NCBI GenBank assembly: GCA_048938445.1
Contig: JBHLME010000137.1
Coordinates: forward strand, 1 to 11,542
Origin: Promethearchaeota archaeon
GTDB taxonomy: Archaea; Asgardarchaeota; Lokiarchaeia; Sigyniarchaeales; SOKP01
Direction: 5' to 3'
DNA length: 11,542 bases
In this document: positions 1 through 9,578 of the stretch, piece by piece
Position numbering within the stretch: the stretch's first letter is position 1
Layout: each line of letters opens with the position of its first letter
Position numbers and translations under genes: made by a program
The notes under the pieces: generated by a model
The model's input: only the letters and a program-made list of their open reading frames with translations
What the model was told of the DNA's origin: nothing
The model's database searches: none

Positions 1-635
1 AGAGTTGAATTATTATGGTTTTTTGATGCTACGACAGCTAATTGTCGTTGTGTAGTGCCATATTTTTGCATATGAAAGCGTGCTGCTGCTGCGTAAAGAT
101 CCATAAAAGCAGAGTGTCCACCTTTTTTCTCCTTGTTAACTTCGATACCCTGTTTTTTGGCTTCTCGTTCCTTTCTTTTTTTAGCCATTTTTTTCAATTG
201 TTCAATTAATTTAGTAGTCCTTTCCACATCAGTTGCCGCAATAAAACCTTCCATCATCTTTTCTCGATCTTCACTATAACCTTTTTCAACACCTATAGAT
301 AGAGCACAATCATAAAGACCTGCTTTTATTGCAGTCCATGCTCCGTGGAAAGCAGTGCTTGCGCCCGCACAAGCATTTTCAACATTTATAATAGGTATTT
401 TATCAATTCCATTGGCAGTAAGTGCCACCTGACCTCGAATGCAATGCTGGAAATCACTCATACCCCAACCTGAATTGGAAAACCAAGCAGCTTCAATGTT
501 ATCCGAATTTATATGATCTTCACAATCTTTTAAAACTGATTCAAGTGCTTCCCCTGTTAATTTTTTAATACTTTTTTCAAGAAATTTACCAAACTTGGTC
601 ATTCCAACCCCAAATACATAAATTTTATCGCTCAT
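1..635 (-). CDS. Thiolase, SCP-x/archaeal lipid-transfer type; 5' part only (~211 aa), continues past the left edge
   Basis: Manual translation from ATG at 635: MSDKIYVFGVGMTKFGKFLEKS...IPIINVENACAGASTAFHGAWTAIKAGLYDCALSIGVEK...FMDLYAAAARFHMQKYGTTQRQLAVVASKNHNNS. It has the N-terminal GVGMTKFG, the ENACAGAS nucleophile motif (Cys89), GVEK and KNHxN, all typical of SCP-x-type thiolases. No stop before the window edge, which is why the ORF track misses it. Confidence 0.93.
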   Translation of the reverse strand, partial: MSDKIYVFGVGMTKFGKFLEKSIKKLTGEALESVLKDCEDHINSDNIEAAWFSNSGWGMSDFQHCIRGQVALTANGIDKIPIINVENACAGASTAFHGAWTAIKAGLYDCALSIGVEKGYSEDREKMMEGFIAATDVERTTKLIEQLKKMAKKRKEREAKKQGIEVNKEKKGGHSAFMDLYAAAARFHMQKYGTTQRQLAVVASKNHNNST

Positions 636-896: not shown

Positions 897-2411
897 ATGA
901 AAGCAGAAATAATTGAAAAAACAGATATAATAAAAACAAAATCTGGAAATATACGAGGCTATTGCGAAAATGATTTAAATATCTTCAAAGGTATACCTTA
1001 CGCAGAATCACCCATCGGAGATTTGAGATTTGAACCCCCTATCGCTAAGAAACCGTGGGATGATATTCTTGAGGCTACGGAATATGGTTCTTGTGCTTAT
1101 CAAGCATATACAGAGCTTGAAGATTGGCTTGGTAAACCTGAACCTGAGAGTGAGGATTGCTTATTCCTTAATATTTGGACTCCCGCTACAGATGATAAGA
1201 AGCGCCCTGTAATGTTTTGGATACATGGAGGTGCATTTGTTATTGGAACCGGAAATGATCCATGGTATGATGGCTCAGCATTAGTTCGACGTGGGGATGT
1301 TGTGGTAGTTACAATTAATTATAGATTAGGATTCTTTGGTTTTTCATATATCTCAGGTATAACTGCTAATGTAGGCCTTCTTGATCAAATAAAAGCATTA
1401 GAATGGGTTCAAGATAATATTGAACTTTTCGGTGGTGATCCTAATAATATAACGATTTTCGGTCAGTCTGCTGGAGGATATTCTGTTTTATCATTATGTT
1501 CAATACCTGCTGCTAAAGGTCTTTTTCGCCGTGTAATAGCTCAGAGTGCTCCATATATCGATCCAAGCAAAGGTGAAAGCGTTACTAAAAGAATATTACG
1601 TAAATTAAAGATTAAAGGAGGAAATTTAAATGCAGCACGGGATTTCCCTCCTGAACAAATTATTGACGCACAAAATAGATTTTTTGCTGATGATCCTAAT
1701 AATATTCTTGCTCTAAGACCCATAATAGATGAAGAAACATATCCTAAACATCCAATAAAGGACTTTAGAGATGGTAATTGTTCAGATATTGATTTTATGA
1801 TTGGTACGAATTTGGACGAAGCAAAAATGTTTACAGCCATGAAAGCTTTAAGATCAGTGACTACTATGGGAGAAAGACTTGCAGTAGGATATTTGGGTAT
1901 GCAGGGAATTGATCTTGAGACAAGCAAAAAAATAATAAATAAATATAAAGAGGCCAGAGAGGGAAAATTTTCCACTGAACCTAAAGATATTTTTGATGCA
2001 ATAATGACAGATGGCACATTTCGTATACCTACAATACGATTACTGGAAGCTCAGAGCCCCCATCAACCTAATACATATAATTATATGTTTACTTTACCAT
2101 CAACCGGATTGAATGGAATTCTAGGTGTTTGTCACGCTCTTGAAATACCATTCATTTTTAGTACCCTTGAAGCACCAAATGTTAAGAATTTTGTTAAAGC
2201 AAATTCTCAAACAAAAGCCCTTAGTGAAAAAATGATGGATGCTTGGATTAATTTTGCACGTACTGGAAATCCTAACCATAAAAATATTCCCGAATGGCCA
2301 GCTTATAATGCCGAAACTAGAGCAACAATGATTTTTGGAGAAGAATGTAAAATTGAAAATGCTATTTTTGACCAAGAACGTAAGCTTTGGGATGGATTTT
2401 TAGAAATTTAA
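897..2411 (+). CDS. Type-B carboxylesterase/lipase (COesterase, PnbA-like alpha/beta hydrolase)
   Basis: 504 aa with FKGIPYA, SEDCLFLNIWTP, oxyanion WIHGGAF, NYRLG, nucleophile elbow GQSAG (Ser191), acid residue in GTNLDE, His in CHALEIPFIF, and C-terminal FARTGNPN/WPAY. No signal peptide evident. Confidence 0.95.
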   Translation: MKAEIIEKTDIIKTKSGNIRGYCENDLNIFKGIPYAESPIGDLRFEPPIAKKPWDDILEATEYGSCAYQAYTELEDWLGKPEPESEDCLFLNIWTPATDDKKRPVMFWIHGGAFVIGTGNDPWYDGSALVRRGDVVVVTINYRLGFFGFSYISGITANVGLLDQIKALEWVQDNIELFGGDPNNITIFGQSAGGYSVLSLCSIPAAKGLFRRVIAQSAPYIDPSKGESVTKRILRKLKIKGGNLNAARDFPPEQIIDAQNRFFADDPNNILALRPIIDEETYPKHPIKDFRDGNCSDIDFMIGTNLDEAKMFTAMKALRSVTTMGERLAVGYLGMQGIDLETSKKIINKYKEAREGKFSTEPKDIFDAIMTDGTFRIPTIRLLEAQSPHQPNTYNYMFTLPSTGLNGILGVCHALEIPFIFSTLEAPNVKNFVKANSQTKALSEKMMDAWINFARTGNPNHKNIPEWPAYNAETRATMIFGEECKIENAIFDQERKLWDGFLEI

Positions 2412-2442: not shown

Positions 2443-3570
2443 TTATTTTTTTATATTACTTATATATTCTTCCCATGTAGGAGGATAATAAGTAATTTCT
2501 TTACCATTTTCATCGATTTTTTTAACATATTCTCTACCTTTTTCATCAAGAAAAACTTTTCCTGAAGTTTTTAACATTTTATAGAGTTCTGCTCTTTTTT
2601 TAGGATCAGCTACACAAATAAAATTACAATTACCACAGCGAGGATTAGTATCCTCAATAGGTCTTAGTCCTACATTTTCAGTTATACCCACTTTTCCGAA
2701 AGAAGCGGCAATCCGGTTATTAAATTTACGTATTATTCTAGGAGTTTCTCTGCTCCTTAGTAATTTGATCATTAAATTTTGGATATAATGACGATTTAAT
2801 TCATTATTAGGCACTTTTTTAAGACAGATATGATCAGGTGTCCAAGTACTCCATTTTCCATCTTTTGATAATCCAGTCCAGCCAGCACAGCCAATACCAC
2901 ACTTCATATATAATCCTCTCTTTCCATAGATCTGTTTTATACCTCCAATAATTACAGGCTGCCTTTCTTCTTGCTCATCTTTAGCCACATATCCCGTTGT
3001 ACATACCTTTTGACATATAAGACATCGATTACAGTTATTTTCTTTTGCCATAGGATCTGGCTCTAGAGGCGCAGTAGTAATAACTCCATCAAGATATAGT
3101 GATCCTCCATATTCTTTGGTAACTAAGTTTCCAGACCAACCGAGATGCCCAAGACCAGCAGCTACAGCACCATAGCGAAGTGAAAAATCTGGAAATGCTT
3201 CACCATCTTTAATAACAACTTTTACTCCTCCTCTATATTTTGCATTCGGTATGACTGGATGAGCTCTATATTCCGTATTATTTTCAATATATTCAACAAT
3301 CTTTACTGCTGTTTTCCAACCAGTAGCATAACCTATATCTTGGCGAACTTTAATACTCATTCTCTCTTTTTTAGAAAAGTAATTTTCCAAAGCTTCCATA
3401 GTGTTTGGATATGCCCAGATTATGCAACTCAATGCCCCAGGGAGACAATAATCCATATTACCAGAGGGTGGAGCTTCTTTAAGTCTGTCCTTACTCCCAA
3501 CGCCAAACAATTTTGCCCCCGAATCGAGAGCAATTTTTTTTATGTCTTCCTTTAATTTTTTTAAGTCCAT
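2443..3570 (-). CDS. QueG / reductive dehalogenase-fold protein, putatively binding cobalamin and two [4Fe-4S] clusters; substrate unknown
   Basis: 375 aa. FSLRYGAVAAGLGHLGWSGNLVTKEYGGSLYLDGVITTAPLEPDP matches the AxxAGLG-x-G...G...T..pL.pD core of QueG/RdhA. Cys motifs: C180xxCxxCxxxC190, C224xxxC228 and C312xxCxxxC319. No twin-arginine signal. Confidence 0.85.
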   Translation of the reverse strand: MDLKKLKEDIKKIALDSGAKLFGVGSKDRLKEAPPSGNMDYCLPGALSCIIWAYPNTMEALENYFSKKERMSIKVRQDIGYATGWKTAVKIVEYIENNTEYRAHPVIPNAKYRGGVKVVIKDGEAFPDFSLRYGAVAAGLGHLGWSGNLVTKEYGGSLYLDGVITTAPLEPDPMAKENNCNRCLICQKVCTTGYVAKDEQEERQPVIIGGIKQIYGKRGLYMKCGIGCAGWTGLSKDGKWSTWTPDHICLKKVPNNELNRHYIQNLMIKLLRSRETPRIIRKFNNRIAASFGKVGITENVGLRPIEDTNPRCGNCNFICVADPKKRAELYKMLKTSGKVFLDEKGREYVKKIDENGKEITYYPPTWEEYISNIKK

Positions 3571-3586
3571 TTTTATTGCTTTTCAG

Positions 3587-4735
3587 TTAAAATTTCTTCT
3601 TTACATAATAAAATCGAATCAGAAGAGTTACACTGAATAATAATATGTTAAAAAGTATCCTTAAATCTGATACAATAAAGAAGAATATTAATAATGCGGA
3701 TATTAATGTCAGACATAGGGTTATTAAAGCCTTAATCTGAACTTTCACATCCACTTCAAATTTTAACTTATTTCCATATTTTATATTATATATACCAAAT
3801 ATAATAGAAAAAACTACAACTAAATAATGTGGATCTGGTGGTTGAAGATAACCAGTAAAACCAAATAGTAAGTTCATTCCTAATCCTCTTATTAATATAA
3901 CAGAAAAGTAGTTTAGTTTTTCATCCATATCCATACTATTTAACTGAGATTTTGTGTTAAAAAATATTATAAAATTAACTAAATTAAGAGATAATACAAT
4001 GTACATGAACATATTTAAGAAAAATCGTCCTTCTGTAACTCCATTGAGTATGAATATCAAATAACTAATGGAGCTTAAAACAGTAATAGTTGTAATTGAT
4101 ATCAAAATATCTGTTTCATTAATTACATTAATTCTTACTAACTTTATAAACATACTAGAAAGCCAAATAACAAAAAATGCCAAGATATAAGCGGTTATAG
4201 ATACATTTAATAAATCAAAGGCTAAAATACCTATAATTATATGAAAAATACCAGAGATAAGGGATAATCTAGCGGCTATAAATTGTTTTGTTCTATTTTT
4301 AAGATATTTTGGCTTTGGTTCATCACTATCAGGCAAGAAGGAGTATAATTTTTGAATAATAACAAAATAAATAAGACCTCTAACCTTAATTTTCCGAGTA
4401 GCAACCATTAACAATAATTTATTCTGTGATATCATTCCGGCCGCAAGTTCCATAAAGATTTGCAATTTCGTTGTCATTTTTCCATTCCAACCTAGTTTCT
4501 TCTGCTCTAGATTACTTGAGTCATCATTACGGATTCCTTCAATGTTAAGTGTTCCTCTATCAATAGTTATTAACGCAGCATATTTTCCATCTGATGGGTT
4601 CAGTAACAATTTAATGCTAAGGTTCTTAGTAAATTCCTTAAATTCCTCGCTTTCTTTAACTAATTCAAGTCTTTTTCCTAAAGTAAAGGCAAAACCTCTT
4701 AATTTTCCCGTACGTTTTAGTTTAGTTTCATACAT
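3587..4735 (-). CDS. Fusion of an N-terminal SCP2-like (sterol carrier/lipid-binding) domain to a C-terminal ~8-TM membrane domain
   Basis: 382 aa. Residues ~1-135 are soluble with an SCP2-like pattern (helix, beta strands KLLLN/AALITIDRGTLNIE, then MTTKLQIFMELAAGMISQNKLLLMVATRKIKVRG, cf. the SCP2 end motif 'GklkvkG'). Residues ~150-380 have about eight hydrophobic segments. Confidence 0.7.
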   Translation of the reverse strand: MYETKLKRTGKLRGFAFTLGKRLELVKESEEFKEFTKNLSIKLLLNPSDGKYAALITIDRGTLNIEGIRNDDSSNLEQKKLGWNGKMTTKLQIFMELAAGMISQNKLLLMVATRKIKVRGLIYFVIIQKLYSFLPDSDEPKPKYLKNRTKQFIAARLSLISGIFHIIIGILAFDLLNVSITAYILAFFVIWLSSMFIKLVRINVINETDILISITTITVLSSISYLIFILNGVTEGRFFLNMFMYIVLSLNLVNFIIFFNTKSQLNSMDMDEKLNYFSVILIRGLGMNLLFGFTGYLQPPDPHYLVVVFSIIFGIYNIKYGNKLKFEVDVKVQIKALITLCLTLISALLIFFFIVSDLRILFNILLFSVTLLIRFYYVKKKF

Positions 4736-5054: not shown

Positions 5055-6104
5055 TTAGAGATTTTCATTGATTTTATTCCATACGACATCAATATTTAAT
5101 GGTTGAAAAGTGCTTTTATTAAATTGAGTTTTGCAAAGCTGATAGACTGTCTTGATAAAAGGAGCTTTGATATTTAAAGAATCCGCTAATTTAACAAAAT
5201 ATCCATTTAATGATTCTAATTCTGATTGACTTTTCCCTCTAATAATGATATCTTGCATCATACTATTAACACCATACTCCTTCATACTTTGTTTAAATAA
5301 CTCGTCTGCTTTATCATCTGGAGTATCTCTCATGATTTTCAATATTTTCCAAGAAGGGATTCCTTTTAATTTGTACTCTTTATAACCTGCAGATTGAATA
5401 ATTTGTATTCCCTCATTTAACATATTAATTAAAATTTTCCTAAGCTTTGAAATTGAAGAGATTTCATTAAGCATTTTATCATAATTGAAATCAATTAATG
5501 TCAAGATAGAATTACCTATGTTAATAATCATTTTAGAATGTGCAGCGTCTTGTAACCTCTTAGTTATTTTGGTTGAAATACCAAAATTAAGAATCTGGCT
5601 TAATTTTTCCATAATTGATTGTAAGGAGTTATCAATTGTACCAAGAATTATTTCTCCATTCCTCCTATAACCAAAAATTCCAGGTTTATCTCTCCATGCG
5701 TTAAAAGCAATGACCCCATAAATTACTTTAGTAAAATAATTCGGTAAAATTTTCTGATTCTCGACACCATTCTGAAAAGCAACAATAATAGGTTTATCTC
5801 CTAATTTTGAAAAAATATCTTTGGCAACCTCTTCGAGATCATAATTTTTTACAGCAATGACTATTACATCTGCCGATGGTTTTTCGTTTAAATTTTCAAT
5901 AACTTTTACAGGAATTGATATTTTATTATTATCTCCTCTCTGATAAATAATTAAACCTCTTGATTTCATTATTTTTGCATTTTCTCCTCTCGCCAATAAA
6001 TAGATCTCATCATAATGAGGAGATAACCATCCACCAAGTGAAGCACCAATAGCACCTATTCCGTAAATTACTATTTTAAATTTGTCATTATTATCCATTT
6101 TCAT
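5055..6104 (-). CDS. panE: Ketopantoate reductase family (PanE/ApbA) NAD(P)-dependent 2-oxoacid reductase
   Basis: 349 aa with Rossmann GIGAIG, AVKNYD, FQNGVEN, catalytic-Lys region SKMIIN, NSMMQD and ELESLNGYFV. The symbol is family-level only. The start could be Met3 (6098). Confidence 0.88.
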   Translation of the reverse strand: MKMDNNDKFKIVIYGIGAIGASLGGWLSPHYDEIYLLARGENAKIMKSRGLIIYQRGDNNKISIPVKVIENLNEKPSADVIVIAVKNYDLEEVAKDIFSKLGDKPIIVAFQNGVENQKILPNYFTKVIYGVIAFNAWRDKPGIFGYRRNGEIILGTIDNSLQSIMEKLSQILNFGISTKITKRLQDAAHSKMIINIGNSILTLIDFNYDKMLNEISSISKLRKILINMLNEGIQIIQSAGYKEYKLKGIPSWKILKIMRDTPDDKADELFKQSMKEYGVNSMMQDIIIRGKSQSELESLNGYFVKLADSLNIKAPFIKTVYQLCKTQFNKSTFQPLNIDVVWNKINENL

Positions 6105-6297: not shown

Positions 6298-6579
6298 ATG
6301 AAAACCAAATTCATTATTATGCATACTGAAGATAATTGTGCTACTGCTTTAGATAGAATTTCTAAAGATACTGAAATAGAAATAAATGATTATCGAATTA
6401 AAATAAATCAAGATATTGATATTGGCCATAAAATTGCTTTAAAAAATCTTAAAAAAGGAGATTTAATTAAAAAATATGGAGAAATTATAGGTATCGCTAT
6501 AGACGAAATAAAAGCAGGGGATTGGATTCATACACATAATATAAAAAGCCATTATTTAGAGGAAGCAAAAATTGACTGA
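6298..6579 (+). CDS. UxaA-family small subunit (SAF domain; altronate dehydratase N-terminal / SuyA-like)
   Basis: 93 aa with DNCATAL, GHKIAL, IKKYGEIIG and GDWIHTHN, the signature of the UxaA/GarD SAF domain. Good SD. Confidence 0.92.
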   Translation: MKTKFIIMHTEDNCATALDRISKDTEIEINDYRIKINQDIDIGHKIALKNLKKGDLIKKYGEIIGIAIDEIKAGDWIHTHNIKSHYLEEAKID

Positions 6580-7753
6580 AGAATTTTTAGGTTATCAACG
6601 ACCAAAGAATTTAGTAGGAATACGTAATAAAATCGCCATTTTATCCTCTGTAGTATGTGTTAATCATATTGTAGAACAAATCGTAAAAAAAGTTGAAAAT
6701 GCAGTAGCAATAACTCATCCACTTGGTTGTGGACAATTTGGAACCGATTTATCATATACAGTACGTACTTTGGCAGGTCTTGCTATTAATCCTAATCTCT
6801 ATGGAGTAGTTATTATAGGTCTTGGATGTGAAAATTTAACGAGCAATCTCTTAGCAAGACATATAAAAAGATCTAAGAAACCAGTTGAATTTTTTAATCT
6901 TCAAGATATAAGCGGAGGATCAATAGCAGCCATTGAAAAGGGAATAGAATATGGTAAAAAAATGGCTATTGAAGCAAATGAATTAAAAAGAGAGCCATTT
7001 GATTTTTCCCATTTGGTTTTAGGATTAGAATGCGGAGGTTCTGATTCAATATCGGGGATTACTGCAAATCCTGTTGTAGGCATTGTGTCTGATAAAGTTA
7101 TTGAATTAGGCGGTACCTCAATTCTTCCTGAATTTACAGAATGGATTGGAACAGAGCATTTATTGATGAGACGAGCAATAAATGAAAAAGTTGCTACAGA
7201 TATTCATCATCCAATTAAAAAATTTTTAGAGAACACCATGAAAATGGGTATTGATTTTACAGGATTCCAACCTACACCTGGAAATATTAAAGGAGGATTG
7301 ACTACAATAGAAGAGAAATCCTTAGGCAATATTGCTAAATCGGGTAAAGCTCCAATACAGGGAGTATTAGATTATTCAGTAAAACCAAGAAAAAAACGAT
7401 TATGGTTAATGATAGAACCTGGTTTTGACATCGAATCTATGACTGGTCTGGCGGCTGCTGGAGCTCAAGTAATTATAATGACTACTGGTCGAGGGAGTCC
7501 TTGTGGAAATCCTGTAGCGCCTGTAATTAAAGTATGCGGTAATGTTAAAACGTGTGATTGGATGAGAATCAATATTGATATAGATGCAAGTAAAATTATT
7601 ACAGAAAATATTTCGATAGAAAATATTGCTGATAATTTATGGGAAAAATTAAAAAATACTTGCAATGGGGATCTAACACAAGCAGAGATTTTGGGTTTCA
7701 AGGATATAGCAATCTGGCGTGTAACAGGTACTTTTCCCTTTTCTCTTAAATAA
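6572..7753 (+). CDS. uxaA: UxaA-family large subunit (altronate/galactarate dehydratase or SuyB-like lyase)
   Basis: 393 aa with FLGYQR..VGIRN, SSVVC, HPLGCGQ, GLGCE, GLECGGSD.SG.TANP, PTPGNIKGGLTTIEEKSLG and TTGRGSP. TTG start overlaps the upstream gene by 8 nt (TTGACTGA) with GAGGA at 6559-6563. The symbol is family-level only. Confidence 0.92.
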   Translation: MTEEFLGYQRPKNLVGIRNKIAILSSVVCVNHIVEQIVKKVENAVAITHPLGCGQFGTDLSYTVRTLAGLAINPNLYGVVIIGLGCENLTSNLLARHIKRSKKPVEFFNLQDISGGSIAAIEKGIEYGKKMAIEANELKREPFDFSHLVLGLECGGSDSISGITANPVVGIVSDKVIELGGTSILPEFTEWIGTEHLLMRRAINEKVATDIHHPIKKFLENTMKMGIDFTGFQPTPGNIKGGLTTIEEKSLGNIAKSGKAPIQGVLDYSVKPRKKRLWLMIEPGFDIESMTGLAAAGAQVIIMTTGRGSPCGNPVAPVIKVCGNVKTCDWMRINIDIDASKIITENISIENIADNLWEKLKNTCNGDLTQAEILGFKDIAIWRVTGTFPFSLK

Positions 7754-7775
7754 ACAGTGATAACTCACTTCATTT

Positions 7776-9578
7776 TTACGTTTGAGCTGTTAAACTTGAC
7801 TCTATTTCATCGAATTTTCCTTCTATTATTCTCTGAAATTCCGATCTGTTAAACGTTTTATATTTTTTTAGACTGTCATTCCAGATCATAAGCTGATCTT
7901 GAATGATTTCAATATTATAACCTTCCTTTTTGAGGTTAATCTTTCTTATTTTAAAACTACTGGAAGTTGTTTCGAGGTCATCACAGATACGTATGAAAAT
8001 TGGAATGGCATATCTTGGTAATACTTCGTAAATGAATCGTGAAAAATCATTGATATCAAACTTAATTGCCAGATCTAATTTAATTGCTGCCATACAAGCT
8101 TTTCCTTCAGTATTAGGTATTGCCACACCATATACAGCAGATGTTTGTATAGATTGGTATGAATTTAAAATAGATTCTACCTCTAATGTAGAGACATTTT
8201 CTCCTTTCCAACGGAATGTGTCACCAAATCGATCTGCAAATGAAATATACAAATCTTCGTGGAGTTTTAACATATCCCCAGTATTAAAATATACATCGTT
8301 TTTTCTAAGAACGTTATGCATAATTTTTTTCTGAGTCATCTCTTTATCTTTATATCCTGTAAAAAAGGTCATCTTATCTAATTTCATTAAGGCCATCCCT
8401 ATGTCGCCAGATTCACATAAAATACAAAATCCTTTCTCATTTCTATAAAATTCACCAGTTTCTGGATCAACTTTTGCTAAAATAAGCCCCGTCTGATTAT
8501 TCCGTCCGACCATTCCAGGGACTTCATTAACATTACCAAACAACCGAATACCTTCGGTTAAGCCATAAAATTCATAAATATGATCAACTTTAAAGCGAGA
8601 TTGAAAGCGTTCCCAGACATCTTTTCTGAGTCCTAAACCTGTCATCTTTTCAAGAGTATGGTTTTTTTCATATTCTGACGCTGGTTGATTAAGAAGATAT
8701 CGAGTTATTTCCCCGATGTACATAGTAAAAGTTGCTTTATAATTCTGAATATCTTTCCAGAACTCTGAAGCTGAAAATCTTTTTCTCAGCGCAACAGCTG
8801 CGCCAGTCGCGAATGATGTGGTCCAAGCAATTCCTATCCCCAAATTATGATACAATGGAGTGGGGATGTAAATGATATCTTGAGAAGATACTTTAGACAA
8901 GGCGATTCCAATGTATAATGCTTGAGTATACAATTTAAAATTATCCATAATTACCGCTTTAGGAAGGCCAGTCGTACCTGAGGTAAATATATAAAGAGCA
9001 GTTTGTCGTAAAATAGAATCAAAAGTTGTTTTAGGATTAGATTTAGATGTGGATTTTAGCTGATCTGGTAACTCAATAAAATCATGTGAAATACTTTCAT
9101 TATTATTAATTACATAAATTTGTTCATTCTTATGAGGAAGGTCTTGAAGAGTCTCATTAAGGGATGTTAAACAATATCCATCAACTACAATCCATCGCGG
9201 ATCAACAATTTTAAACGCATGAGTTAATGCTTTTTTTCTTTGATAAATGTTCATAAGAGCAGTGATGCCTTGAATTTTATTTATTCCACTTGTAAGAAAG
9301 AGATATTCAGGTGAATTTTCAAGCATTATTGCAATAGTATCTCCTGGATTTAATCCTAAATTATAAAAATAATTAGCAATTCTATTAGTTTCCTCGTTAA
9401 AAGCCTGCCAAGTCCATGATGAATCCTGAAAATATAAAGCACACTTATTTGGCATTTCTTCTGCTAATTGCTCAATTTTTGTGCCGATACTCTGCTTTGG
9501 ATTTTTGATTATCTTATCCATTAATTCTACAAATTTCTTTACTTGTTCAATTTCTTTTTGGGTATAAAGATCAACCAT
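7776..9578 (-). CDS. FATP/SLC27-type (FadD6-like) long-chain acyl-CoA synthetase
   Basis: 600 aa with AMP-binding YIFTSGTTGLPKA, FSASEFWKD, YIGEITRYL, EFYGLTEG, YFNTGDML and the FATP signature DRFGDTFRWKGENVSTLEVE. Confidence 0.95.
   Translation of the reverse strand: MVDLYTQKEIEQVKKFVELMDKIIKNPKQSIGTKIEQLAEEMPNKCALYFQDSSWTWQAFNEETNRIANYFYNLGLNPGDTIAIMLENSPEYLFLTSGINKIQGITALMNIYQRKKALTHAFKIVDPRWIVVDGYCLTSLNETLQDLPHKNEQIYVINNNESISHDFIELPDQLKSTSKSNPKTTFDSILRQTALYIFTSGTTGLPKAVIMDNFKLYTQALYIGIALSKVSSQDIIYIPTPLYHNLGIGIAWTTSFATGAAVALRKRFSASEFWKDIQNYKATFTMYIGEITRYLLNQPASEYEKNHTLEKMTGLGLRKDVWERFQSRFKVDHIYEFYGLTEGIRLFGNVNEVPGMVGRNNQTGLILAKVDPETGEFYRNEKGFCILCESGDIGMALMKLDKMTFFTGYKDKEMTQKKIMHNVLRKNDVYFNTGDMLKLHEDLYISFADRFGDTFRWKGENVSTLEVESILNSYQSIQTSAVYGVAIPNTEGKACMAAIKLDLAIKFDINDFSRFIYEVLPRYAIPIFIRICDDLETTSSSFKIRKINLKKEGYNIEIIQDQLMIWNDSLKKYKTFNRSEFQRIIEGKFDEIESSLTAQT

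Follow-up and report, generated by a model that had tools for sequence, protein, structure and literature searches.

To our knowledge, QueG and the reductive dehalogenases (RdhA) are the only members of the class III cobalamin reductase group that have been characterised. Encoded next to rdhA is an anchor of the RdhB type, a small protein of about 100 residues with two or three transmembrane (TM) segments. Here we describe a gene pair of the Promethearchaeota archaeon assembly GCA_048938445.1 (Lokiarchaeia), located on contig JBHLME010000137.1 (contig C81 of our genome set), the whole 11,542-nt stretch of which is referred to below as the window. A preliminary description of this DNA had proposed that a membrane-anchored, SCP2-like lipid carrier is encoded together with a cobalamin- and Fe-S-dependent reductase of the QueG/RdhA fold. 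We found the two genes co-directional and separated by 16 nt, as that description had it, with the membrane partner upstream of the reductase, an arrangement from which co-transcription is probable; its supposition of an archaeal host also agrees with the homologs, which are named as Asgard (Promethearchaeota). The locus joins a clade of the QueG/RdhA superfamily that awaits characterisation to a membrane partner of narrow distribution for which we found no earlier description; the pairing itself is real but narrow.

The AlphaFold2 (AF2) model of the 375-residue reductase was of high confidence (pLDDT 94.8, pTM 0.93), and its best Foldseek matches in the PDB were to PceA (E 5.6e-9, TMq 0.42–0.43), QueG (E 3e-8) and NpRdhA, with weaker ones to MMACHC, all of the significant matches being B12-binding nitroreductase-like folds. 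QueG (5d6s, 5d08; TIGR00276) is alike in that its ferredoxin domain, in which the second Cys motif is split, comes after a nitroreductase-like B12-binding fold, and in the common core AGxGxxGxxxxxxTxxyGsxxxL...PD..CxxCxxCxxxC, whereas the RdhA enzymes (PceA 4uqu, 8q4h; catabolic NpRdhA 4ras, 6zxu) provide the best structural matches and the same architecture of two [4Fe-4S] clusters plus corrinoid. In a 44-sequence alignment, nine Cys of the reductase are invariant (C180-x2-C183-x2-C186-x3-C190, C224, C228 and C312-x2-C315-x3-C319). In the available text of PMC4646009, the distal cluster of QueG has Cys184/187/190/243 as its ligands and the proximal cluster has Cys194/210/236/239, and the nine Cys fit this scheme, which would be sufficient for two predicted [4Fe-4S] clusters. 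The QueG/RdhA fold of the preliminary description is therefore borne out by the Foldseek matches and the invariant Cys. Judged from the model, the reductase is class III cobalamin-type by fold, with the architecture of that superfamily: a predicted nitroreductase-like B12-binding fold and a ferredoxin domain with eight Cys ligands.

At the level of sequence, the profile of the reductase family aligns significantly to QueG 5d6s (E 2e-12) and PceA 4uqu (E 1.5e-9) over the corrin-contacting loop and first Cys motif only, and suggests corrinoid binding. The position aligned to PceA Arg-305, an active-site residue whose role is described in PMC4646009 as far as its available text goes, is Tyr159 in the reductase and likewise Tyr in QueG (HMMER alignment), which leans slightly away from a PceA-type active site. 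Nearest to QueG Asp-130 in the profile alignment (P127/D128; HMMER alignment only) there is no conserved Asp. The segment N109-x-x-Y112-R113 is invariant and a candidate for the Tyr conserved above the corrin (a Tyr taken from the same text of PMC4646009); it might also provide the Tyr (Tyr-101) of the catalytic D-Y-H motif of QueG, and Y112-R113 might substitute for the PceA Tyr-246/Arg-305 pair. Peculiar to the family is an 84-residue insert between C228 and C312; the C-terminal 55 residues (320–375) are mainly beta in the AF2 model, with three strands and short helices. The N-terminus, MDLKKLKEDIKK, forms a helix of the fold (pLDDT 96) and has no twin-arginine translocation (TAT) or signal features, so that the reductase would be cytoplasmic, like QueG and the catabolic RdhA, the latter of which it also resembles in its degradative gene context.

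Membership in either of the known families was not supported. The reductase had no match in Pfam (PF13486 being absent at E 0.01 or better), and in NCBIfam it reached 43 bits against a 200-bit cut-off with the QueG model TIGR00276 (residues 135–198 only) and 24.3 against 160.35 bits with the dehalogenase model TIGR02486, both matches lying within residues 135–201. Eight superfamily loci in the genome matched the QueG model, all sub-threshold at 22–72 bits. QueA (PF02547) was not found in this 96.5%-complete genome, with a control that was positive in nine of 14 genomes, and TGT was found. The C-terminal HEAT-repeat domain, specific to QueG according to the available text of PMC4646009, which also treats queuosine biosynthesis as bacterial, is absent: there is no HEAT match in Pfam, and Foldseek aligns QueG over ~230 columns only. 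Neither a TAT signal, an RdhB neighbour (2–3 TM), N-terminal TM helices nor a fused reductase (NAD(P)H-reductase) module was found at the reductase. With scores far below both cut-offs, QueA not found and PF13486, TAT and HEAT features missing, sequence comparison places the reductase outside QueG and canonical RdhA. Compared with other RdhA-like proteins, it matches PceA at a TMq of 0.42–0.43, versus TM scores of 0.63–0.90 given for cold-seep proteins in the accessible portion of PMC12219181, although the methods differ; and the Asgard 'putative RDases', which carry PF13486 and PF13484 according to the accessible portion of PMC6737245, belong to a different family, the window reductase having neither domain.

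A homolog search of a 5.8-billion-protein database listed 120 clusters, 118 of them at E 6.6e-40 or better, and nearly all of the named ones are Asgard. Several homologs are labelled 'epoxyqueuosine reductase' by their source, and the nearest atlas clusters bear the same automatic label with no common Pfam family. Among species-representative genomes, 100 stretches encode relatives, of which 79 loci were kept. Asgard members are 50–90% identical, and full-length relatives at 28–37% identity occur in Dehalococcoidia, Desulfobacterota, Spirochaetales and Hadarchaeota and as further Asgard paralogs; relatives from anaerobic bacteria stand at 30–35%. By these sequence searches the reductase belongs to a large, mostly Asgard family that has no Pfam model. 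Reductases of the Asgard type at 57–64% identity also occur on contigs binned as 'Deltaproteobacteria' or 'Acidiferrales' (L022, L023, L032; the L023 contig measures 1.6 Mb), which could reflect mis-binning or recent transfer. The window's own genome contains in addition short superfamily paralogs of the Fer4_16 type, with 233–282 residues (L134 on G000:C187 and L137 on G000:C255), which lie between two CoA-transferase subunit genes and beside MaoC dehydratase and tautomerase genes.

The partner (382 residues) had no match in Pfam (E 0.01 or better), NCBIfam or PDB sequences, and 13 clusters of homologs were found, the window's own included. Its AF2 model, built from 13 sequences (pLDDT 78), consists of an alpha/beta domain (14–132) followed by eight long helices (148–381). 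In Foldseek the ~45 top rows were all SCP2-fold (best E 7.7e-3, TMt 0.55–0.66) and included the SCP2 domain of the SdsA1 alkylsulfatase, the Yarrowia, human and insect SCP2 proteins, AF1534 and UbiJ; VIA-align independently gave the alpha/beta domain Z scores of 9.7–10.2 to SCP2 entries, with Z 10.2 to 3bks (root-mean-square deviation 3.1 over 111 residues). Since the Pfam SCP2 model (PF02036) did not match, the assignment is a fold-level call, and it is at this level that the preliminary description of the partner as an 8-TM protein with SCP2 proves right: the modelled N-terminal domain has the SCP2 fold. This domain is 38–45% identical to stand-alone SCP2 proteins of ~135 residues, and the TM module is 31–39% identical to unfused TM proteins of ~240 residues, fused and unfused modules aligning across their entire length. 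The partner is a common stand-alone SCP2 fused to an orphan 8-TM module.

Invariant in the TM module are a His in TM1, an LDxMDxxxK loop, (R/K)GLG, a Gln and a C-terminal IRxYY. An exhaustive profile search with the module among 1.84 billion representative proteins returned 26 relatives at E 0.001 or better, which makes it an orphan family. No identity came from Pfam, NCBIfam or PDB sequences, the atlas gave no usable match and the profile search retrieved the module's own small family only. Identification by structure was likewise rejected: Foldseek gave none, and the generic four-helix bundles that were all VIA-align returned (Z 12–14.5) are at noise level for helical proteins. The K/R-rich linker between SCP2 and TM parts and the KKKF C-terminus fit an N-in/C-in topology, in which the SCP2 domain would face the cytoplasm. 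With eight TM segments in ~240 residues, the module is unlike RdhB. Although the RdhA–RdhB system is alike in having a membrane protein encoded alongside, the analogy drawn with it in the preliminary description is loose because the reductase has no TAT-like N-terminus and its partner is an 8-TM orphan joined to SCP2, not a 2–3-TM RdhB. Among SCP2 systems (the SdsA1 C-terminal domain, 2cfu; UbiJ-SCP2, 6h6o; SCP2/SCPx), the likeness lies in the fold and in the idea of combining SCP2 with enzymes whose substrates are hydrophobic, and a thiolase of the SCPx type is encoded near our pair; the difference is that SCP2 is here fused to an integral 8-TM protein, of which the literature searched held no description. 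In a preprint devoted to the lipid-transfer proteins of Asgard archaea, the available text goes no further on SCP-2 than naming a single homolog, in MK-D1 (PMC12139934).

The stand-alone SCP2 genes have a strongly conserved neighbourhood of their own (L099, L104–L120): of 16 loci, 15 have an RNase III-like gene and a gene for a 143-residue protein of no Pfam family, 13 a zinc-ribbon gene of the RPB9 type and 11 a GDPD gene. The gene for the 135-residue SCP2 seems to belong to the core set of this Asgard family. No reductase gene was found within 1.5 kb of stand-alone SCP2 in the 16 loci, which therefore say nothing about the reductase.

Full-length SCP2–TM fusions were found in five of 400 genomes of the phylum (G000, the window's own genome, G167, G168, G171 and G173), and 128 of 134 family genomes showed some match to the partner, as fusion or as separate halves. 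The reductase follows the fused partner in four of the five (G000, G167, G168 and G173), with a gap that measures 16–17 nt in each of these four. The same order occurs on one metagenome contig (L086); four other metagenome contigs with the partner end too early to show the next gene, and on L090 (partner at 41%) no reductase was seen in the remaining 483 nt. The adjacency noted in the preliminary description is thus kept elsewhere. A degraded SCP2–TM copy with stop codons is present in G276 (L129, G276:C5, about 6970–8276), directly downstream of an SdsA-type alkylsulfatase gene and with no reductase within 6 kb.

Linkage of the TM module to reductases extends beyond the fusion, a point that adds to the preliminary description. 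Fused or unfused, the module occurs in 21 of 135 family genomes at 22 loci, 21 of which were counted as informative, a 2.1-kb fragment being set aside. A reductase-family gene lies within 3 kb at 11 of the 21 (fused 4/6, unfused 7/15), where we estimate a chance expectation of 1–2% per locus from eight superfamily loci per 4.6 Mb. Among the unfused loci, the order is reductase then TM gene in G181, G225, G193 and G204; the others linked are G164 (2.5 kb, divergent), G186 and G274 (reductase, metallo-beta-lactamase (MBL) hydrolase, then TM gene). Linked loci come from five of the seven genera having the module, show both gene orders and involve two reductase subfamilies with ~30% identity between them, and the finding that the unfused module also adjoins distant reductase paralogs supports the TM/reductase link. 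Moreover, an ester hydrolase is encoded at nine of the 11 linked loci, namely COesterase at four, sulfatase at three (G186, G193, G204) and alkylsulfatase plus MBL at two (G164, G274), and in G204 the genes for the reductase, the TM protein, a short Fer4_16 paralog and a sulfatase follow one another in the same direction. Complex prediction for reductase and partner (both as alignments) gave an ipSAE of 0.00, which in a run without controls counts neither for nor against contact.

To trace the reductase beside the partner, we built an IQ-TREE tree of 32 reductases, comprising 25 Asgard-type rows (open reading frame (ORF) of at least 300 residues, at least 45% identity) and seven remote outgroup rows; the remaining remote loci, and those that lacked a clean ORF, did not enter the tree. 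The group {window, L006} is sister (100/99) to the alkylsulfatase-linked {L007, L008, L009}, and {L026, L029} forms a separate clade (100/100) in an unresolved polytomy. Monophyly of the partner-linked reductases was not recovered, these falling in the two clades {window, L006} and {L026, L029}. The partners are 70–82% identical in all comparisons, whereas the reductases linked to them are 90% identical within a type and 62–68% between types, and the window/L006 type is 75–78% identical to its alkylsulfatase-linked paralog. Partner and reductase divergences are thus discordant, yet coupling and the 16–17-nt spacing persist. From the pairwise identities and the tree we infer at least one replacement of the reductase in place and one deletion (in G171), coupling to the family being otherwise kept.

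In a wider survey, 366 neighbours from 74 reductase loci were clustered and assigned by Pfam. Most frequent beside the reductase were DUF169 (10 of 74 loci) and SDR proteins (nine), followed by arylsulfatases (PF00884), SdsA-type alkylsulfatases and nitroreductases (eight each), Fer4 proteins and transporters of the MFS family (seven each), aminotransferases and acyl-CoA ligases (six each), thiolases and ACAD proteins (four each) and COesterases (three). The SdsA-type alkylsulfatases that adjoin paralogous reductases have the MBL and dimerisation (Alkyl_sulf_dimr) domains, while Pfam shows no C-terminal domain resembling SCP2 in them. In G164 (L125), the reductase paralog is preceded at 22 nt by a flavodoxin gene. 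Proteins of 358–372 residues that end in a 2x[4Fe-4S] ferredoxin domain and whose N-terminal part has no annotation also stand beside reductases, at seven loci in the neighbour cluster and again in L122 and L151 (L007, L009, L031, L062, L078, L122, L151); these could represent another redox partner or a remote paralog.

Our preferred reading, which we hold tentatively, is that a cytoplasmic corrinoid reductase acts, at the membrane, on hydrophobic molecules that the cleavage of esters yields. The TM module would be the membrane partner of family reductases, as docking site and/or substrate portal, and the SCP2 domain, where fused, would pick up or extract a hydrophobic substrate at the membrane and present it to the reductase. 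Neighbouring esterases or sulfatases would release the unmasked, lipid-like substrate; the reductase, with ferredoxin or flavodoxin as electron donor, would carry out a corrinoid-dependent two-electron reductive elimination on it (dehalogenation, or epoxide or other deoxygenation), and the product would pass to CoA activation and thiolysis. The preliminary description likewise suggested that the partner could anchor the reductase and deliver its substrates, roles that it may have. A corrinoid cofactor is physiologically plausible, as the genome has CobS and 41 matches to the B12-binding family PF02310, 40 of them above cut-off. Many of these matches are open frames of 470–510 residues clustered on few contigs (G000 contigs C17, C144 and C97), which suggests a large expansion of cobamide-dependent enzymes. 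A more specific version, in which the locus is an Asgard-specific module that breaks down ester-masked, halogenated or epoxidised lipids at the membrane (alkyl lipids bearing sulfate or chlorine, for example, or polyesters of epoxy fatty acids), seems to us unlikely as it stands; in it a carboxylesterase, sulfatase or alkylsulfatase would unmask the substrate, the 8-TM protein (with or without SCP2) would take it from the membrane, and the class III cobalamin reductase would remove a halogen or an epoxide oxygen before CoA activation and beta-oxidation.

Several observations weigh against the preferred reading. Sequence-level similarity of the reductase to B12 enzymes is significant over ~70 residues only, with a Foldseek TM of 0.42, and the partner is assigned to SCP2 by fold only, with a best Foldseek E of 7.7e-3. 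Ten of the 21 TM loci have no reductase (G171, G276, G145, G146, G147, G149, G162, G277 and two in G273), and most of these sit among unrelated genes (HMGL-like, EMG1, Rpr2, radical SAM, aminotransferases). By hidden Markov model search, the TM module is within 6 kb in just five of 79 reductase loci (L006, L024, L026, L029, L031) and SCP2 only in the three fused loci among them, so that the pairing of the preliminary description recurs as stated but is rare from the reductase side. The largest Asgard reductase subclade (nine rows) is adjoined only by an aminotransferase and an MFS gene. Related genomes cannot be counted as independent, and any formal test of the TM/reductase linkage is inflated by their kinship. 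Finally, G171 (L121) has no reductase in 14 kb, while partner, esterase, thiolase, SAF/GD_AH and acyl-CoA ligase are kept and the 3' end of the partner gene faces the esterase directly. This last locus also speaks for the main rival, which we consider somewhat improbable: that the genes are neighbours without a common mechanism, the SCP2–TM protein taking up or handling lipids for the esterase, acyl-CoA ligase and thiolase and the reductase being an exchangeable passenger. The esterase is syntenic in all five fused-partner genomes and the reductase in four, the reductase type in the slot varies between lineages, and the rarity of the TM module at reductase loci agrees with it too. Against such a passenger role, however, in G181, G225, G193 and G204 the unfused TM module, without SCP2 and away from any esterase, comes immediately after a distant reductase paralog, the 16–17-nt spacing is maintained across reductase types, and the esterase gene, being convergent with the pair, belongs to another transcript.

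The chemistry may also differ from that proposed. It is rather unlikely, in our view, that the fold has been kept for something other than corrinoid-dependent reductive elimination, such as an Fe-S or flavin oxidoreductase acting on another group of ester-derived substrates; this would suit a protein that shares only the core loop and Fe-S motifs with B12 enzymes, has a fold derived from nitroreductases, with nitroreductase and flavin-reductase genes recurring nearby, and carries the family-specific 84-residue insert, yet the proteins that it significantly matches in structure (PceA, QueG, NpRdhA, MMACHC) all bind B12, the segment that is conserved is the corrin-contacting loop, and cobamide-dependent proteins are plentiful in the genome. 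Less probable still is a respiratory or energy-coupled complex resembling RdhA–RdhB, in which the TM module would pass electrons (from quinol, for example) to the reductase, with an organohalide as terminal acceptor. The RdhA-type fold, the invariant His in TM1 and the small membrane subunits with which known RdhAs pair (PMC12219181, in its accessible portion) speak for such a complex, but the N-terminus is neither TAT- nor signal-like and is part of the fold, the TIGR02486 score and the missing PF13486 match point elsewhere, as does Tyr at the PceA Arg-305 position, the 8-TM partner is unrelated to RdhB and its single invariant His means no bis-His haem site, and soluble donors (flavodoxin, Fer4 proteins, flavin reductases) recur near reductases. 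That the enzyme is a true tRNA epoxyqueuosine reductase is extremely improbable, in line with the preliminary description, which took this to be unlikely if the host is archaeal: QueG is the best sequence match in PDB and NCBIfam, and some sources name homologs accordingly, but the score covers a short segment far under the cut-off, the HEAT (tRNA-binding) domain is lacking, no conserved equivalent of Asp-130 is seen in the profile alignment, the host is an archaeon in which QueA was not found while the control worked, and this is a family with eight sub-threshold paralogs in one genome and in metabolic, catabolic contexts, queuosine biosynthesis being bacterial in the available text of PMC4646009.

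The genome that carries the window comprises 4.63 Mb in 256 contigs with ~30% G+C (8.2% contamination), and the features of the window are collected in the table.

Table. Features of the 11,542-nt window, in order of position (aa, amino acids).
Feature	Position	Strand	Basis or remark
Thiolase, N-terminal part, cut by the window edge; SCPx/lipid-transfer-protein type	3..635	-	PF00108; NF004720/NF006102 sub-threshold
Type-B carboxylesterase, convergent with the pair	897..2411	+	PF00135, E 1.5e-118
Reductase gene, QueG/RdhA-fold (class III cobalamin type by model), Cys for two predicted [4Fe-4S], 375 aa	2443..3570	-	Structure and Cys alignment
Core common to QueG and RdhA, aa 128–200: putative corrin-binding loop and first CxxCxxCxxxC	2971..3189	-	Profile alignment
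Intergenic spacer, partner/reductase	3571..3586	-	16 nt, sequence read
Partner gene, SCP2-fold domain fused to orphan 8-TM module, 382 aa	3587..4735	-	ORF, AF2 model
Orphan 8-TM module, aa 145–382	3590..4303	-	Eight helices in AF2 model
SCP2-fold domain, about aa 13–134	4334..4699	-	Foldseek, VIA-align
Two short out-of-frame open stretches, 45 and 31 aa	4799..5032	-	Coding-like; no Pfam match at E 0.1 or better
PanE/ApbA-type reductase, upstream of partner	5055..6104	-	Pfam
SAF + GD_AH dehydratase, split, upstream of partner	6298..7753	+	Pfam
SAF gene, 93 aa	6298..6579	+	8-nt overlap with GD_AH gene
GD_AH gene, 393 aa	6572..7753	+	
Long-chain acyl-CoA synthetase, upstream of partner	7776..9578	-	NF006134, 633.5 bits vs 625-bit cut-off
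Hydrophobic protein, 245 aa	10237..10974	+	No Pfam or NCBIfam family

The carboxylesterase is the most conserved syntenic neighbour of the pair, with the same position in L006, L026, L029 and L121, and the thiolase is syntenic in the same four loci. An esterase and a thiolase do flank the pair, as the preliminary description had stated, but both lie on the reductase side; the gene on the other side encodes the PanE/ApbA-type reductase and no thiolase. The long-chain acyl-CoA synthetase gene further upstream is syntenic in L121. The region of 319 nt upstream of the partner is AT-rich and has several TATA-like strings, from which no promoter was called; the two out-of-frame stretches within it may be the relic of a lost gene. 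The altronate/galactarate-dehydratase-type enzyme is split into SAF and GD_AH genes, an arrangement also syntenic in G171 (L121), and near the far end of the window stands the gene for a hydrophobic protein.

No paper combining a sterol carrier protein with a reductive dehalogenase, DUF169 with a sulfatase, or a reductive dehalogenase with a sulfatase and Lokiarchaeota was found in the literature searched, which held no described system with this pairing, in line with the preliminary description. If the lipid module set out above were true, the QueG/RdhA superfamily would gain its first member directed at lipids and coupled to SCP2, together with a membrane partner of a new kind. The system is rare; its two proteins make a defined target for biochemistry. 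Genes of the family are repeatedly linked to those of sulfatases, alkylsulfatases and carboxylesterases, as well as to the gene of an orphan membrane protein, to which SCP2 was added in some lineages; this offers a testable hypothesis for the handling of modified lipids by these archaea, and the pairing may stand for an as yet unstudied way of degrading modified lipids with ester linkages. Asgard 'QueG' annotations of this type are best treated as labels by resemblance. That a large family without a Pfam model, to which the name QueG is often wrongly given, has expanded in Asgard archaea points to B12 chemistry of anoxic sediments that is still to be explored.

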